A stretch of 64,000 nucleotides of DNA from an uncultured Candidatus Peribacteria bacterium (lineage in GTDB: Bacteria; Patescibacteriota; Gracilibacteria; Peribacterales; Peribacteraceae), in NCBI GenBank assembly GCA_964497975.1, contig CAZCFO010000003.1, positions 6,620 to 70,619 of the forward strand. The letters run 5' to 3'. The notes beneath the pieces are model-generated. The model was not told the origin of the DNA. It made no database searches and saw only the letters and a program-made list of their open reading frames with translations. Of this stretch, positions 23,584-50,022 are shown piece by piece (position 1 is the first letter of the stretch; each line of letters begins with the position of its first letter). Both the position numbers and the translations under genes were made by a program.

Positions 23584-23669
23584 TGGTGCCCAGGAGAGGA
23601 CTCGAACCTCCACGGCCTTGCGGCCACCAGCCCCTCAAGCTGGCGCGTCTGCCATTTCGCCACCTGGGC
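23584..23669 (-). tRNA. tRNA-Leu (anticodon GAG), CCA encoded
   Basis: Folded by hand. 7-bp acceptor stem GCCCAGG/CCTGGGC, 3-bp D stem with a GG loop, anticodon stem CCAGC/GCTGG with loop TTGAGGG, long variable arm GGCC-GCAA-GGCC, T-loop TTCGAGT, discriminator A plus CCA. Confidence 0.95.
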
Positions 23670-44526: not shown

Positions 44527-44847
44527 ATGTCCTGCGGATCCTGTTGCTCGTCGGGCTGCGGCCCGTGTCTCGTCTGCAAAATCGCCAGCGGCATCGTCGG
44601 GCTCCTCGTGACCGTCACGACCGTCGCGACGCTCATCGGCGTCTGGATGACGCACAACACCCCCGAGGGCTGGGCCTTCGGCACGCCGAACGGATCGCTC
44701 TCCGTGATCGCCTTCGTGGTCTCGGCCGCGGTCTGGCTGAAGATCTTCAAGAAGATGTGCGGCTGCTGCGGCAAGAAGGGCGGCGCCTGCAAGGATGGCG
44801 CCTGTACGGATGGCGGTTGCGGCGACGGCTCGTGCGGCGGCAAGTGA
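44527..44847 (+). CDS. Cys-rich 2-TM small protein
   Basis: MSCGSCCSSGCGPCLVCK, TM, loop, TM, then KKMCGCCGKKGGACKDGACTDGGCGDGSCGGK. 106 aa. Confidence 0.65.
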   Translation: MSCGSCCSSGCGPCLVCKIASGIVGLLVTVTTVATLIGVWMTHNTPEGWAFGTPNGSLSVIAFVVSAAVWLKIFKKMCGCCGKKGGACKDGACTDGGCGDGSCGGK

Positions 44848-44881
44848 GCCACGACGTGAATCGTGAATCATGAATCGTGAA

Positions 44882-44909
44882 GCGGTCCGCCTCGGCGGGC
44901 CGCTTTTTT
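44882..44909 (+). terminator. rho-independent terminator
   Basis: GCGGTCCGCC-tc-GGCGGGCCGC followed by T6. Preceded by direct units GTGAATCGTGAATCATGAATCGTGAA. Confidence 0.65.
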
Positions 44910-44913
44910 CGAT

Positions 44914-44993
44914 GTCATCCCGCGTGCCCGTCCGTAGCTCGGAAGAGCGAAGGCGGGAGTAGTTCGTGGCGGCCCACGAACGTAACGAGGGAC
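44914..44993 (+). repeat. GTAG-box hairpin element 7 (forward, with internal insertion)
   Basis: GTCATCCCG [34-nt insert] GAGTAG TTCGTGG CGGC CCACGAA CGTAACGAGGGAC. Confidence 0.65.
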
Positions 44994-45096
44994 AAACAGC
45001 GGCCCGGCTTCCCCCGTACCAGTCGCTGCGCTCCGGTACAGGACATGGCGCTACTCGGACACGTTCAAACAGCGGGGCAGCGCTGTCTGGAGTCTC

Positions 45097-45441
45097 CTAC
45101 TCCTTCTTCAATTTCGGGCGGACGAAGACTTCCCTCGCATCATCCTGATGCGTGAGGGCGACATAACTGGTGCCATTCAGGCCTATGTGCTTGACCTGGA
45201 TTTCACCTTCCTTGGCTTCGCGACTGACAAACGTTTTTGTGGTTCCGTCCGTGTAATCGATCCGGACGGATTTTTCTCCGATAGTGAAGCCGGAGACCGG
45301 AGTTGCGTTGGTCAACTCCGAATGCTGTCTCCAGGTTGTGATCGCCGCGAGGACGACCACGACAATAAGGGCCAGGATAACCGCATACTCGACGGCCGTC
45401 GGGCCGTCGTCGCGCTTCAAAAAAGAAAGAACTCGTTTCAT
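45097..45441 (-). CDS. Flp/Fap-type pilin-like protein with extended C-terminal domain
   Basis: MKRVLSFLKRDDG/PTAVEYAVILALIVVVVLAAI matches the Flp prepilin motif G/xxxxEY plus a hydrophobic helix. GGAG lies 8 nt upstream. About 75 extra C-terminal residues. Confidence 0.7.
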   Translation of the reverse strand: MKRVLSFLKRDDGPTAVEYAVILALIVVVVLAAITTWRQHSELTNATPVSGFTIGEKSVRIDYTDGTTKTFVSREAKEGEIQVKHIGLNGTSYVALTHQDDAREVFVRPKLKKE

Positions 45442-45715
45442 GGAAAAAACTCCGGTTGTTGCTGCCCCACATCGTCCTCCTTCCTTCGCTCTGCCCAGCG
45501 ACGGTCGAAAGACGATCGTGGGACGTTGCGGGTCCGCGGCCGGCAAACGGCCAGCCACGGTTTCCTCGGAATGAGGACGAGTGGGTCAAGGCGGTGGATT
45601 TTCAAAAAACAGTGGGTCATTCTGACCGCATGCCAACAAAATTCAATAGCAGATGAGCTCCGCACCGCTTTGTATCACGAAACGGCGAGGGCAGCGCCGC
45701 TTGGGGGAGTCGAGG

Positions 45716-45913
45716 TCACTTTTTGGTGACCCCGTGGATGACGGGATGCGCCGGACGCTGAGGCGGTTTTCTCAATTCAGAGAAAATCACCCAGGCGAAG
45801 ACGACGATGAGAATCATCGACGCATACACATTGCATTCCGTTGCACTCAGACTTTCCAGGAAAGCCTGAATCCGTGCGTGAATTCTTTTCACGAACTCGA
45901 CAATGTTTTTCAC
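45716..45913 (-). CDS. small single-TM protein (non-canonical Flp-like core), GTG start
   Basis: VKNIVEFVKRIHARIQAFLESLSATECNVYASMILIVVFAWVIF... GTGA overlap with the stop of the preceding 38-aa ORF. Confidence 0.35.
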   Translation of the reverse strand: MKNIVEFVKRIHARIQAFLESLSATECNVYASMILIVVFAWVIFSELRKPPQRPAHPVIHGVTKK

Positions 45914-46026
45914 AGGAATTTCTCCAAAACAATAACCAGAAGCAGAAGAAAAATGACCAGCAGGCCGAGCATGAATGCTTTCGCGTGCTCCACGCTGCCG
46001 CGACGCCGTCGGAAGCAATATTTCAT
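45910..46026 (-). CDS. 38-aa hydrophobic peptide
   Basis: My translation is MKYCFRRRRGSVEHAKAFMLGLLVIFLLLLVIVLEKFL. GGAG lies 5 nt upstream of the ATG at 46026. Confidence 0.35.
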   Translation of the reverse strand: MKYCFRRRRGSVEHAKAFMLGLLVIFLLLLVIVLEKFL

Positions 46027-46138
46027 ACGGACTCCTTATCTGTGCTGCCCCCACGATCCTCCTTCCTGGACGGAAACCGCACCGAGCGGTCTCACGGGAA
46101 AAGAGGAATAGTAGGGGAAGGGGAATGACAAAGAGCGG

Positions 46139-46390
46139 TCAGCCGAGCGGTGCCATCAGGCAGACGTTGCTTTCGCCGGTCTCGGGATCGATGTGGGTGC
46201 CGCACATGGGCAGGGAGATGGAGCGGTTCGCGCGCTTTTCCAAAACCCTCCGGAATTTTTTCTCATCCACTTCCCTCATTTTCTGAAGGTTCCGGCAGGA
46301 CTTTCCCATTTTCTTCCGTGCAGGGGCCACGGCCAATGTCGGAACAATGGGCTCGTCGTACAAGCCGTCGATTTCCACCTGGGAAGGCAC
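46139..46390 (-). CDS. small hypothetical protein
   Basis: 83 codons from GTG 46390, which sits 6 nt after a TTGACT-N17-TTAAAT promoter. An internal ATG (MGKSC) is an alternative start. Confidence 0.45.
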   Translation of the reverse strand: MPSQVEIDGLYDEPIVPTLAVAPARKKMGKSCRNLQKMREVDEKKFRRVLEKRANRSISLPMCGTHIDPETGESNVCLMAPLG

Positions 46391-46396
46391 GAAGCA

Positions 46397-46425
46397 ATTT
46401 AAAAATATTTATGACTTATAGTCAA
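46397..46425 (-). promoter_or_regulatory. sigma70-type promoter TTGACT-N17-TTAAAT
   Basis: Read on the minus strand directly after the terminator at 46446-46476. Confidence 0.5.
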
Positions 46426-46445
46426 TGTTCGAATTTCCGCACACG

Positions 46446-46476
46446 CAAAAGGCTGGGGGGCGACGGAATCCCAGCC
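46446..46476 (-). terminator. rho-independent terminator
   Basis: On the minus strand: GGCTGGG-attccgtcgc-CCCCAGCC followed by TTTTG. Confidence 0.65.
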
Positions 46477-46501
46477 ATGTTCGACGTGAGTCGAAAGATT
46501 T

Positions 46502-46618
46502 TTACATCAGGCCGAGAGCGTGCAGGACGCACCCGGCCAACATGAGGCCGCCCGCGAGAGCGGCGAGGCAATCGCGCCATGACATGTTTTCGACGACGGG
46601 GAACTGATTCTGGCTCAT
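46502..46618 (-). CDS. 38-aa membrane peptide
   Basis: My translation is MSQNQFPVVENMSWRDCLAALAGGLMLAGCVLHALGLM. AAGGAG lies 8 nt upstream. Directly preceded by leader copy A. Confidence 0.45.
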   Translation of the reverse strand: MSQNQFPVVENMSWRDCLAALAGGLMLAGCVLHALGLM

Positions 46619-46633
46619 TGTGGAACTCCTTGT

Positions 46634-46750
46634 GCCCCCACAGCATCCTCTTTCTCATTCACCTTGCCGGTGAATCGAAGATTCACTGTGGGCAAAATGA
46701 TGGTGCGTCGGCTTGGAGCCGACGTTCCCTCGAAAAAGAGGGTGCGTGGG
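46634..46750 (-). promoter_or_regulatory. structured leader element, copy A
   Basis: Shares the 5' arm CCCACGCACCCTCTTTTTCGAGG and the 3' arm GAGAAAGAGGATGCTGTGGGGGCA with copies B and C. The internal hairpins differ by compensatory changes. Confidence 0.6.
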
Positions 46751-46830
46751 GATGATGCGGTGATGACAAGGGCCAAAATCGCTGAGGGGCAGTCAGCGAG
46801 ATGTGGCATGGCGCGAGGCCCTGCCAAAAA

Positions 46831-47277
46831 TTATTTGATCGTCAGGGTGCCGGTTTGATCCGGCGCCCTTTTCAAAGTCAGAGACTTCGACTTGGTCGTC
46901 GAAATCCTGACTTCATCGGAGGTGACGTGAATGGAACTCACGTCACCCTCGAGATCGTGGCCTTCCTCAAGCCACGTGACCGTGATGCCCGGGCGGGGCG
47001 TCACGTCGTCGGGATAGCGGAGCTCCATCTGGAGCCCCGCGACGGTGTAGCGGCCCGCGGTCGTCGTGACCACGAGCCGGTTTTTTTTGAGCTGAACGGC
47101 CGTGATGGCTTTCCCTGCCATCTGCTGAGTTTTCTTTTCACCCGAGGCGTCGGTGGCGGTGACGCCGATTTGCATTCTGGGCGAACGTTCCTCCGTTGCC
47201 CAAAAGCCGATGGCCGTAGCGAGGCCAAGGAACGTGACGAGCATCAGGGCCGTCATACTTTGCGATCTGATAATCAT
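46831..47277 (-). CDS. membrane-anchored beta-rich protein, paralog B
   Basis: 148 aa. The end ...TTAGRYTVAGLQMELRYPDDVTPRPGITVTWLEEGHDLEGDVSSIHVTSDEVRISTTKSKSLTLKRAPDQTGTLTIK aligns along its length with the 47498-47944 product. Confidence 0.75.
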   Translation of the reverse strand: MIIRSQSMTALMLVTFLGLATAIGFWATEERSPRMQIGVTATDASGEKKTQQMAGKAITAVQLKKNRLVVTTTAGRYTVAGLQMELRYPDDVTPRPGITVTWLEEGHDLEGDVSSIHVTSDEVRISTTKSKSLTLKRAPDQTGTLTIK

Positions 47278-47295
47278 TAGATTCTCTCACTTTCT

Positions 47296-47418
47296 GCCCC
47301 CACAGCATCCTCTTTCTCATCGCCCTGCCCGGCGATTCAAAAAAGAATGCCTGAGGGCAAGACGTAATAGTTGCGTCAGCCTGCGGCTGACGTTTCCTCG
47401 AAAAAGAGGGTGCGTGGG
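47296..47418 (-). promoter_or_regulatory. structured leader element, copy B
   Basis: Nearly identical to copy C. Immediately 5' of start codon 47277. Confidence 0.6.
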
Positions 47419-47497
47419 AACGTGCGATGATGACAAAGGCCAAAATCGCTGAGGGGCAGTCAGCGAGATGTGGCATGGCGCGAGGCCGTGCCAAAAA

Positions 47498-47944
47498 CTA
47501 CTTGATTGTCAGGGTGCCGTATTGATCCGGCGTCCTAGTTAGGATCACGAGCTTCGACTTGGTAGTCAAAAGTGTGATTTCATTGGCGGTGACGCGAATC
47601 GAACTTACGTCACCATCCAAGGTGTGGCTTTGTTCAAGCCACCTTATCGTGACGCTCGTTCGCGGCGTCACGTCCTCGTGGTACTCGAACCGCATGTCGC
47701 GGCCCCCGATGGGGTAACGGCCGGCGGTGGTCAAGATGACCAGCCGGTGTTGCTCTACGCGAATACCGCTGATCGATTTCCCAGCGATAGGGTAGCGCGG
47801 ATCCGTCCGGTACCCTTCTGGGTCGATCCTGGGTATCACGACGATGTCATTGCCGCTCGGGTTGACGAGTGCCCAGTAGGCACAAGCCGCCGAAAGGCCG
47901 ACAAAAGTGACCGACAACACGATGACCAATGTTTTCTGCTTCAT
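47498..47944 (-). CDS. membrane-anchored beta-rich protein, paralog C
   Basis: Start at MKQKTLVIV (47944). The C-terminus ...LTRTPDQYGTLTIK matches paralog B. Confidence 0.75.
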   Translation of the reverse strand: MKQKTLVIVLSVTFVGLSAACAYWALVNPSGNDIVVIPRIDPEGYRTDPRYPIAGKSISGIRVEQHRLVILTTAGRYPIGGRDMRFEYHEDVTPRTSVTIRWLEQSHTLDGDVSSIRVTANEITLLTTKSKLVILTRTPDQYGTLTIK

Positions 47945-47960
47945 AGCTTTCTCGCTTTCT

Positions 47961-48081
47961 GCCCCCACAGCATCCTCTTTCTCATCGCCCTGCCCGGCGA
48001 TTCAAAAAAGAATGCCTGAGGGCAAGACGTAATAGTTGCGTCAGCCTGCGGCCGACGTTTCCTCGAAAAAGAGGGTGCGTG
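47961..48081 (-). promoter_or_regulatory. structured leader element, copy C
   Basis: As copy B, with one substitution that turns an A-U pair into G.U on the minus-strand transcript. Confidence 0.6.
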
Positions 48082-48114
48082 AGGGTGCTTGTTGATGACA
48101 ATGACCAAGATATT

Positions 48115-48143
48115 ATTATACCATAAATAATAAAATCAGTCGA
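48115..48143 (-). promoter_or_regulatory. sigma70-type promoter TCGACT-N17-(TGg)TATAAT driving the leader/paralog operon
   Basis: Read on the minus strand in the AT-rich divergent region shared with typA. Confidence 0.5.
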
Positions 48144-48222
48144 ATATGCGCTTCCGGAAGCGTGAAGTTTGCCCTACACTCTCGCCGCTCCGGGACCTCC
48201 GGAGGAGCTTCCCGCTGCTTTT

Positions 48223-50022
48223 ATGAGTATCCGCAATATCGCCATTATCGCCCACGTCGACCATGGAAAGACGACGCTCGTCGATGCGCTGCTCAAGCAG
48301 GGCGGGGCGTTCGCCGCGCATGAGCAGGAGAAAGTCGGCGAGCTGATCATGGACTCCAACGCGCAGGAGAAGGAGCGCGGCATCACCATCTACGCCAAGA
48401 ACTGCTCCATCCAGTACAAGGACTGCCGCATCAACATCGTCGACACCCCCGGCCACGCGGATTTCGGTTCCGAGGTCGAGCGCGTGCTGCGCACCGTCGA
48501 CTGCGTGCTGCTCGTCGTCGACGCGCAGGAAGGGCCCATGCCGCAGACGAAATTCGTGCTCAAGAAGTCGCTCGAGCTCGGCCTCAAGCCGATCGTCGTC
48601 ATCAACAAGATCGACAAGCCCGCGTCGCGCGCCATGGAGGTGGTCGACGAGGTCTTCGATCTCTTCGTCGCGCTCAAGGCCAACGACCAGCAGCTCGACT
48701 TCCCGTACATCTTCGCCATCGCCCGCGAGGGCATGGCAAAGCGCAAGCTCGAGGATTCATCCAAAGACCTGACACCGCTCTTCGATTTGATCATGGAGCA
48801 TGTTCCCGCCGTGGAGCAGAACATGACCGCGCCGTTCCGCATGCAGCCCTGCAGTCTTGCGTACGACAACTACGTCGGCCGCCTTGCCATAGGGCGTGTG
48901 ACCGAAGGCGTCGCCAAGGTCGGCGACAAGGTGTTCATCAAAAAGCCCGACGGACACACGCGCACCAGCAAGATCACGAAAATTCTGCTGTACAAAGGGC
49001 TCCGCCGAATTGAGGCCCCCGAGGCCGTCGCCGGCGACATCGTGACCATCGCGGGCATTCCCGACATCTACGTCGGCGAGACCATCACCACCAGCGATTC
49101 CGCCGAGGCGCTTCCCGCGCTCAACATCGACCCCCCGACGATCAGCATGGAATTCCTCGTCAACAACTCGCCGTTCGCCGGCAAGGAAGGCGAGCTCGTC
49201 ACCACGCGGCACATCAAGGCCCGCCTGGAGCGCGAGAAGGAGACGAACGTCGGTCTGCACGTGGAGGAGGTCCCGAATTCCGACACGTACAAAGTCTCCG
49301 GCCGCGGCGAGCTGCATCTTTCGGTGCTCATCGAGGACATGCGCCGCGAGGGCTTTGAGCTGCAGGTCTCCCGCCCCGAAGTGATCATGCGCACGATCGA
49401 CGGCAAAAAGCACGAGCCCATCGAGCAGGCGATCATCGACGTTCCCGAGGAATTCACGGGCACGGTCATCGACATGCTCTCGCGCCGCAAGGGCGAGCTC
49501 GTGGACATGAAGACCTCCGAAGGCCACGCGCGCATCGAGTTCAAAGTGCCCACCAGGGGCCTGCTCGGCTTCCGGGGCGACTTCATCATCGAAACGCGCG
49601 GGGAGGGGATCCTGAGCCATTCCTTCATCGGCTACGAGCCGTACAAGGGCGACCTGCCGGGCCGCACGCGCGGCTCCATGATCTCCATGGGCGGCGGCAA
49701 GACCGTCGCGTTCGGTCTCTGGGGCCTCCAGGACCGCGGCAAGCTGTTCGTCGTCCCGGGCGTCGACGTGTACGAAGGCATGATCGTCGGTGAGAGCGCG
49801 AAGAACGAGGACATGATCGTGAACGCCACCAAGGAGAAGAAGCTCACGAACATGCGCGCCTCGGGCTCCGATGAGGCGATCAATCTGACGCCGGTCAACC
49901 AGATGACGCTCGAGCAGGCGCTCGAGTACATCGCGGATGACGAGCTGGTCGAGATCACGCCGAAGAACATCCGTCTCCGCAAGAAGCTGCTCAAGGAACA
50001 CGAGCGGAAGAGGCAGAAGTGA
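48223..50022 (+). CDS. typA: translational GTPase TypA/BipA
   Basis: [31 protein letters not shown] motifs and EF-G-like domains. Start at MSIRN (48223). Confidence 0.95.

Follow-up and report, generated by a model that had tools for sequence, protein, structure and literature searches.

A repeated, structured leader RNA, probably of a new family, upstream of small membrane-protein genes in Peribacteria

In the early mRNA of phage T7, RNase III signals (R0.3-R1.3) are present between the genes, and rRNAs are flanked by long stems. The 5' stabilisers of Gram-positive mRNAs include the STAB-SD (SD, Shine-Dalgarno) of cryIIIA and the 5' stem-loops of ermC and aprE, and in the type I toxin mRNAs hok and tisB a long 5'-3' pairing prevents translation of the primary transcript until processing. 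In our study, a structured leader was found in five copies in a 64,000-nucleotide stretch (the window) of contig CAZCFO010000003.1 from an uncultured Candidatus Peribacteria bacterium. The copies lie in an island of small membrane-protein genes beside typA. The leader is a real RNA element and is probably new, being an RNA family without a match in Rfam that falls within the known kind of structured mRNA leaders, and we hold it highly probable that it functions as a leader RNA of the sense strand.

Like the T7 signals and the rRNA stems, the leader is repeated before successive cistrons and contains an irregular helix of ~20 bp with a bulge or internal loop (P1, the closing helix), and the ribosome-binding site (RBS) follows right after it. 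It differs from them in having no sequence or Rfam relation, in forming a three-way junction rather than a simple hairpin, and in its host, which belongs to the Candidate Phyla Radiation (CPR) and is not a phage; cleavage is a prediction here. With the Gram-positive stabilisers it shares an SD-like purine tract (GGAAGGAGGA or GAGAAAGAGGA) far upstream of the start codon and a stable structure near the RBS. Unlike in those systems, the SD-like tract is paired in P1 and not free for the 30S subunit, ~20-30 nt of unstructured RNA precede P1 in the predicted primary transcript, and a stabilising role is, for the leader, a proposed one.

A first-pass annotation, made from the letters of the window, had described a triplicated leader (copies A, B and C) on the minus strand, directly upstream of open reading frames (ORFs) starting at 46618, 47277 and 47944. 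These copies and starts were recovered, but the island was found to contain five copies instead of three. A covariance model built from A, B and C, as the annotation had suggested (R1; a later model is called R2), added the diverged copies D and E in the window, also on the minus strand, and copies F and G in other organisms (Table 1 for A-E). The end motifs shared by A, B and C, CACGCACCCTCTTTTTCGAGG (21 nt, 5' end) and GAGAAAGAGGATGCTGTGGGGGCA (24 nt, 3' end), each occurred exactly three times in the 64 kb, where 0.00-0.01 occurrences are expected by chance. The five copies of the window span 2.7 kb on one strand, and the size of the element ranges between 77 and 140 nt. No further copy was found in the remaining 61 kb of the window by the covariance model and a motif regular expression, and the covariance model found no additional copies in ~144 kb of related and other loci.

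All long copies were predicted to fold into one three-way junction of P1, P2 and P3/P3a. The long pairing proposed in the first-pass annotation closes this junction in each of A, B and C, the minimum free energy (MFE) of which was -65 to -70 kcal/mol (z -5.8 to -7.1); none of 200 shuffles was as stable. P1 contained 20-21 bp and paired CCUCUUUUU with the SD-like GAGAAAGAGG. The order of its parts was CCCAC:GUGGG, one conserved bulged U, GCA:UGC, a C.A or U-A position, and then CCUCUUUUUC:GAGAAAGAGG. The 5' strand is a pyrimidine tract (CCCAC-GCA-n-CCUCUUUUUC), which is anti-SD-like, and the 3' strand is a purine tract (GAGAAAGAGG-A-UGC-U-GUGGG), which is SD-like. As a duplex, P1 had an energy of -27 to -32 kcal/mol. 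P2 is a GC-rich hairpin, variable in sequence and length, and P3 and P3a form the third arm.

In the MAFFT alignment of the five window copies, P1 was 92% paired, against 54-65% with slid partners, and four pairs were changed on both sides; among these, UCG:CGA in copy D replaces the GCA:UGC of the other copies. A six-copy alignment (A6), which was fitted to the model structure, leans toward that structure and holds non-independent copies, had 93.9% of its cells paired, against 44-60% when slid; 15 pairs were changed on both sides, and six of the eight pairs of P2 covaried. Across the copies P1 was 92-97.5% paired, and the pairing was kept at identities down to 54-64%. The first-pass annotation had claimed compensatory changes in the RNA of the transcript strand, and this was confirmed, as the slid controls paired less and the structures of the copies contained 33 G-U pairs on the sense strand against 4 A-C pairs. 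The two double compensatory changes of its hairpin 1 and the G-U pair of copy C on the minus-strand RNA were found as described. The sense folds were stabler than the antisense folds by 0.4-16 kcal/mol (-69.5/-59.0 in B, -73.7/-57.3 in G, -72.2/-66.7 in D and -41.3/-35.6 kcal/mol in E). The G-U bias and the stabler sense folds fit an RNA made from the coding strand. P1 and the 3' strand of P3 were conserved in sequence, whereas J1/2, P2 and all loops were variable. A 23-nt block, GAGGAUGCUGUGGGGGCAGAAAG, was identical in B, C, F and G, and a GAGG motif came after the 5' arm in 6/6 long copies.

The position of the leader was fixed. In 7/7 copies (A-G), all on the sense strand, the distance from the 3' end of P1 to the start codon was 16-23 nt, and the genes that follow, in three organisms, encode small membrane proteins, including a Flp-type pilin. 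Copy F was found through the proteins: an exhaustive profile search with the alignment of proteins B and C gave a remote homologue, P0137/P0138 (E 2e-4, 25-26% identical), on a metagenomic Peribacteria contig (L028; L032 is identical in sequence). This contig contained, in order, the divergent typA start, a TtGTATAAT box, leader F (173-310; 75.6 bits with R1, 109 with R2), the gene, a post-gene hairpin and a TTGTCAT motif. In contig L029 (TypA 92% identical), leader G was present at 362-222 (64 bits with R1, 94.7 with R2), divergent from typA, preceded by a TAGTATAAT box and a TTGTCATCA motif and followed by a 43-aa (amino acid) and then a 26-aa transmembrane peptide. The latter and the C-terminal portion of the window's 38-aa ORF, which follows copy A, are homologous (12/23 identical). 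The TATAAT boxes of L028 and L029 lie at the equivalent relative position, and typA, promoter, leader and small transmembrane gene are syntenic in three organisms.

In the window, leader, gene and spacer form a tandem unit of 665-668 nt with a mosaic identity pattern, evidence of duplication and conversion; the leaders of B and C are near-identical although their genes have diverged. Such a pattern is what would be expected if the leader were a neutral by-product, that is, an ancestral hairpin of the 5' untranslated region (UTR) that was duplicated in tandem together with its gene, homogenised by gene conversion and without a function of its own. We regard this as highly improbable, as copies D and E stand before unrelated genes, F and G are present in other organisms, and many of the changes are compensatory. 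Leader F was 80-81% identical to B and C, whereas the proteins downstream were only 25-26% identical.

The first-pass annotation had recognised no known riboswitch class in the leader, and the Rfam scan that it proposed agrees with this. At the gathering threshold, the only match of Rfam 15 in the whole window was a tRNA gene (23587-23669, minus strand). A permissive scan of 46300-48300 gave 13-21 bits against thresholds of 39-100, and L028 and L029 gave 0 matches at E<=1. Like the purine and thiamine pyrophosphate riboswitches, the leader is a three-way junction of the 5' UTR beside the RBS, closed by a P1 that has alternative partners. Unlike them, it has a P1 of 20-21 bp rather than 4-8, unconserved junctions and loops, a two-helix short form, no match in Rfam and no metabolic theme. 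The conservation pattern of metabolite riboswitches is reversed here, as P1 and the P3 3' strand are kept while the junction and loops vary. Copy E has no P3 and keeps only P1 and one hairpin, and with P2 and the loop sequences varying, the constraint lies on P1 and not on the junction core. A metabolite riboswitch is unlikely, given the great length of the closing helix, the variable junctions and the existence of a short form. Two other candidates were rejected. A hammerhead-like core (GAUGAG...AAA) lacked the required stem II and had no Rfam match, and a triple helix of a U-rich box with the purine strand of P1 was mismatched in the parallel register, judged by eye only.

In the main rival explanation, the leader is regulatory and bistable, acting like a riboswitch or under the control of a protein or a small RNA; its 3' arm pairs with either the 5' arm or an internal box, and an effector sets the state and the expression of the island. 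In its alternative state, hairpin 3 would be formed and the 5' arm folded onto the nearby GAGG. The mutually exclusive pairings noted in the first-pass annotation proved to be real and general. When the 5' arm was withheld, the 3' arm paired with an internal box resembling the 5' arm, with hairpin 3 at the tip, in all long copies; in copy D the alternative helix is the MFE structure. Compared with dinucleotide shuffles, the alternative duplex exceeded chance in A-D (1-5/300), was marginal in F (18/300) and was not significant in G (54/300). A 3-nt swap is also in its favour: copy D has CGA in the 3' arm with UCG in both the 5' arm and the internal box, and B and C have GCA/UGC in all three. 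The variants of hairpin 3 are compensatory (UUCACC/GGUGAA, AUCGCC/GGCGAU and UUCGCC/GGCGAA); its sequences exist as the annotation gave them, but the hairpin is absent from the MFE fold and is formed only in the alternative one. The GAGG after the 5' arm and the 23-nt block, which is conserved more than pairing needs, are consistent with two states as well.

Against the bistable leader, the P1 fold was stabler than the alternative by 10-25 kcal/mol in A, B, C, F and G, a gap far above what ligand binding could tip at equilibrium. The results for F and G given above, the unconserved junction and loop sequences and the lack of a P3 arm in E argue in the same direction, and the downstream genes have no common metabolic theme. 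The genuine RBS starts immediately 3' of P1, and its predicted accessibility was about equal with or without the 5' arm and the same in both pairing states. No terminator-like hairpin with a U-run was found inside the leader, by scan or in the sequence. Sequestration of the SD by the freed 5' arm was considered and rejected, as the duplexes of arm and RBS were weak (-4.6 to -7.8 kcal/mol; -13.8 in F) and RBS accessibility did not change. Of the riboswitch-like expression platform proposed in the first-pass annotation, the alternative pairing stands, but RBS accessibility is unaffected and the architecture is contrary to a small-molecule aptamer, so that the platform appears doubtful. We consider the bistable leader unlikely. 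The same holds for its wider form, in which a CPR-specific bistable leader, responsive to a protein, a small RNA or a ligand, would co-regulate an island of small surface or membrane proteins including the Flp-type pilin, as a portable module of leader and small gene; we judge this to have a minor chance. If true, the portable module would account for the multiplied copies in the island as well as for the island's patchy distribution in close relatives.

A second group of explanations places the element at the level of DNA, as a mobile repeat (a miniature inverted-repeat transposable element, MITE, or a repetitive extragenic palindromic, REP-like, element) or an attC-like cassette site; on this view, recombination acts on the inverted-repeat ends, and the RNA fold is a side effect. 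The element has imperfect terminal inverted repeats of ~20 bp with one extrahelical base, a variable centre and a length of 77-140 nt. It is located between small orphan ORFs of one direction, the 3.3-kb island is absent at the locus in equally close relatives, and the near-identical elements of B and C beside diverged genes form a mosaic or concerted pattern. The leader thus resembles the attC sites of integron cassette arrays, which are imperfect palindromes of 60-140 nt with an extrahelical base and a variable centre, set among small one-direction orphan ORFs in a variable region. Unlike attC, however, it lacks the cores RYYYAAC/GTTRRRY; its ends are (C)CCCAC and GUGGGG(G), with no GTT triplet at the 3' boundary. 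Neither an integrase nor a transposase was detected among the ORFs of the island, its flanking genes and ten large ORFs within ~15 kb, and the island had no phage or plasmid matches.

The first-pass annotation had named a MITE as its principal alternative, and this was not upheld. Target-site duplications were looked for, and no direct repeats were read at the flanks of any copy (element bounds marked by slashes: GCATCAT/CCCCAC...GTGGGGG/CACAAGG in A, GCACGTT/CCCAC.../CAGAAAG in B and GCCTTGA/CCCAC.../CAGCAAC in D). No dispersed copies were present elsewhere in the 64 kb or at the loci of relatives, and all seven copies have one orientation and the fixed distance from the start codon. The retention of pairing at 54-64% identity is unlike recently spread MITEs, and the 33:4 ratio of G-U to A-C fits an RNA of the coding strand. 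The gene content of the locus is partly orthologous across the organisms, and this indicates vertical descent; together with the G-U bias, it points to a vertically inherited RNA and not to attC, from which the leader also differs in its fixed position relative to promoter and start codon. The DNA-repeat explanation is largely refuted, and we give it very little probability.

The leader could also belong to genes of type I toxin-like hydrophobic peptides, with the long 5'-3' pairing keeping the primary transcript inert until processing, as in hok and tisB. It resembles these mRNAs in that distant 5' and 3' stretches of the untranslated region pair with each other and very small hydrophobic peptides are encoded after it. 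Peptides of 26-43 aa with a single transmembrane segment are the products of four downstream ORFs, and the highly structured 5' UTR has SD-like and anti-SD-like tracts and exposed SD-like GAGGA motifs as possible standby sites. However, the leader is also present before proteins of 114-150 aa, namely 148-150-aa proteins and the Flp-type pilin, and the true RBS is free in the predicted folds, not occluded as in hok and tisB. No antisense promoter was found within the leaders by scan and no antisense or small RNA was identified; plus-strand promoter-like sites (48092-48124) lie outside the leaders. The toxin-leader explanation is, in our judgement, very improbable.

Starting from the observed fold, conservation, strand, fixed position and gene association, we propose that the leader is transcribed as the 5' UTR of small membrane-protein genes in an accessory island beside typA in some Peribacteria, and that it would act post-transcriptionally through P1, not as a metabolite aptamer. 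In the polycistronic transcript, every cistron would carry its own leader. P1 may lock the anti-SD-like tract to an SD-like decoy and would keep the true RBS, which starts right after the helix, open and in a defined context. With its roughly two helical turns of double-stranded RNA and its bulged U, P1 may be a determinant of processing or stability, for instance as a site of the RNase III type or by blocking decay that depends on the 5' end. P1, with its 20-21 pairs, bulged U and C.A or U-A position, is a helix of the kind used by RNase III (at least 20 bp with a bulge or internal loop). That the leader acts in cis through P1 in processing, stability or RBS insulation, taken as one statement, seems to us slightly favoured; a specific role in processing or stability is a more tentative suggestion.

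Several points weigh against this P1-centred reading. The idea of RBS insulation has no computed support, as the predicted accessibility was about unchanged by the 5' arm. The pairing of the 3' arm with the internal box beats chance in A-D and could be a real conformational switch that a model centred on P1 leaves unexplained. The 23-nt block GAGGAUGCUGUGGGGGCAGAAAG is conserved beyond pairing needs, which hints at a trans-acting partner. Four of the copies are non-independent paralogues of one island, alignment A6 was fitted to the model structure, and the sample consists of three organisms and six distinct long sequences.

The island (~44.87-48.16 kb, 3.3 kb) contained five modules of leader and small gene on one strand, in at least two transcription units (Table 1). 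The gene typA (48223-50022) is divergent from the unit of leader C, and the TypA protein marks the organism as a member of Candidatus Peribacteria/Peregrinibacteria (CPR). The TGgTATAAT promoter-like site of the first-pass annotation was recovered by scan. Its terminator folds as described, with the hairpin and UUUUG, but the terminator scan did not flag it, since its loop is 12 nt and the U-run is short.

Table 1. Features of the leader island (window positions; listed in the order of transcription)
Feature	Position	Strand	Remarks
Promoter-like TCGACT-17-TGgTATAAT	48115..48143	-	Scan; first leader and gene (C); divergent from typA
Leader copy C	47955..48085	-	Three-way junction with P1, P2, P3/P3a; R1 160.4 bits; fold -69.7 kcal/mol, z -5.8
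Gene C, 148 aa, N-terminal transmembrane segment	47498..47944	-	Paralogue of gene B, 63/148 identical
Spacer after gene C	47421..47497	-	Two small hairpins and UUGUCAUCA motif
Leader copy B	47290..47420	-	R1 160.4 bits; fold -69.5 kcal/mol, z -6.35
Gene B, 148 aa, N-terminal transmembrane segment	46831..47277	-	
Spacer after gene B	46753..46830	-	~95% identical to gene C spacer
Leader copy A	46628..46752	-	R1 122.2 bits; fold -65 kcal/mol, z -7.06
38-aa ORF after leader A, one transmembrane segment	46502..46618	-	AAGGAG Shine-Dalgarno
Terminator-like hairpin GGCUGGG...CCCCAGCC, then UUUUG	46446..46476	-	Ends C-B-A transcription unit
Second promoter-like TTGACT-18-TAAATT	46396..46425	-	Scan; AT-rich stretch
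ORF of 56-83 aa, basic	46139..46390	-	Without own leader, without transmembrane segment
Leader copy E	46041..46117	-	Short form, P1 closes a single hairpin; R1 17.2 bits, R2 22.9 bits, E 8e-4
38-aa transmembrane ORF and 65-aa transmembrane ORF	46026-45910 and 45913-45716	-	GTGA overlap; AAGGAG SD on 38-aa ORF, downstream of leader E
Leader copy D	45457..45587	-	Most diverged long form; R1 35.9 bits, R2 74.8 bits
Flp/Fap-type pilin-like gene, 114 aa	45097..45441	-	Directly downstream of leader D; unusual C-terminal extension

The ORF at 46139-46390 is the sole island ORF without both a leader and a transmembrane segment. It contains ...MCGTHIDPETGESNVC, has its own promoter-like site (46425-46396), and could, from its sequence, be a regulator of the island. 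The C-terminal extension of the Flp-type pilin is ~70 aa long, and database Flp pilins (62-67 aa) cover only the N-terminal 31-48%. An in-frame GTG at 45558, after GAGGAAACC in the junction of copy D, would add 39 codons to the Flp ORF (153-aa ORF), reading through the leader. As the ATG at 45441 agrees with the Flp prepilin leader MKRVLSFLKRDDG, the longer frame is probably a coincidence. An upstream ORF from an AUG in the 3' arm of the leader was rejected as unconserved: in copy C alone does it stop at the main start codon, and in B and F it continues further.

A post-gene hairpin, CGCUGA-loop-UCAGCG followed by AUUUUGG, was present on the minus strand at 47440-47470 and 46772-46802. The corresponding hairpin of L032 (535-560), CGCUGUGA-loop-UCACAGCG, had a stem longer by 2 bp on both sides. 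Between cistrons, this hairpin could act as a weak terminator or protect the 3' end. A TTGTCAT(CA) motif occurred on the minus strand at 47430-47436, 46763-46769, 48095-48101 and 46125-46131, as well as at ~374-380 of L029 and ~575-581 of L032. It precedes P1 by 7-12 nt in copies A, B, C, E and G, and it is found once more after the F gene. Four of the ten TTGTCAT occurrences in the window (both strands) were at leaders, and in C and G the predicted transcription start precedes the motif by ~4-6 nt or more. The conserved single-stranded UUGUCAUC(A) motif, at this distance from P1 in these five copies, could be a cleavage or binding site.

In relatives with a TypA 79-92% identical (L002-L008, L030), a Cys-rich small membrane-protein gene is located 120-270 nt from typA, whereas in the window the two are 3.37 kb apart; the island is accordingly an accessory insertion or a deletion polymorphism. 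The 3.3-kb island (44870-48160) was absent from L002, L003, L004, L008 and L030 and at least partly present in L028 and L029, and on these contigs it is a presence/absence polymorphism among very close lineages. The Cys-rich protein of the window (106 aa, MSCGSCCSSGCGPC...CGGK; 44527-44847, plus strand) has no Pfam family, and its gene adjoins typA in all relatives examined (85-106 aa). With the covariance model, no leader was found at the typA locus of L002-L008, L030 and L031. Short-read assemblies break in or beside the repeats of leader, gene and spacer (at the start of L026, the ends of L028/L032 and the end of L029), so that the copy number in the genomes of F and G is probably undercounted.

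Wider searches gave no further copies. The Logan contigs L026 and L027 come from the same organism and are identical to the window. A scan of genome contigs with exact and degenerate patterns gave one chance match in a Clostridia coding region. In metagenome contigs the 21-mer had 0 matches, and the structured pattern had 12, none of them with a significant fold and all judged by the covariance model to be chance matches (<=13 bits with R1, <=17 with R2). One scan of viral contigs gave 5 chance matches and two more gave 0. An intergenic palindrome in L010 (1445-1570, minus strand) has a similar closing helix (CCCACGAUUCCUC / GAGGAAUC-U-GUGGG, with a bulged U) and 16 bits with R2 and is otherwise dissimilar. 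It was rejected as a homologue, its sequence and context being unrelated, and was judged a chance product of the search pattern. A word-indexed search with protein B returned only itself. In the exhaustive profile search, giant MucBP and RHS repeat proteins were spurious repeat matches, and only P0137 was real.

Knowledge of RNA-based gene control in Patescibacteria (CPR) is, as far as we are aware, very scarce. A perspective from 2024 mentions riboswitches only as possible genetic tools (PMC11665869). The leader described here would be a lineage-specific RNA with good covariation support, attached to genes of small surface or membrane proteins and a Flp-type pilin, and such products are of the class thought to mediate the attached lifestyle of Patescibacteria. 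Its known distribution is very narrow (three uncultured organisms), so that the general impact is moderate and the present evidence brings no change of paradigm. For studying the expression of such genes, the leader offers a concrete element of ~125 nt with clear compensatory mutants, and in organisms with few known genetic parts it may be of use as a portable expression element.

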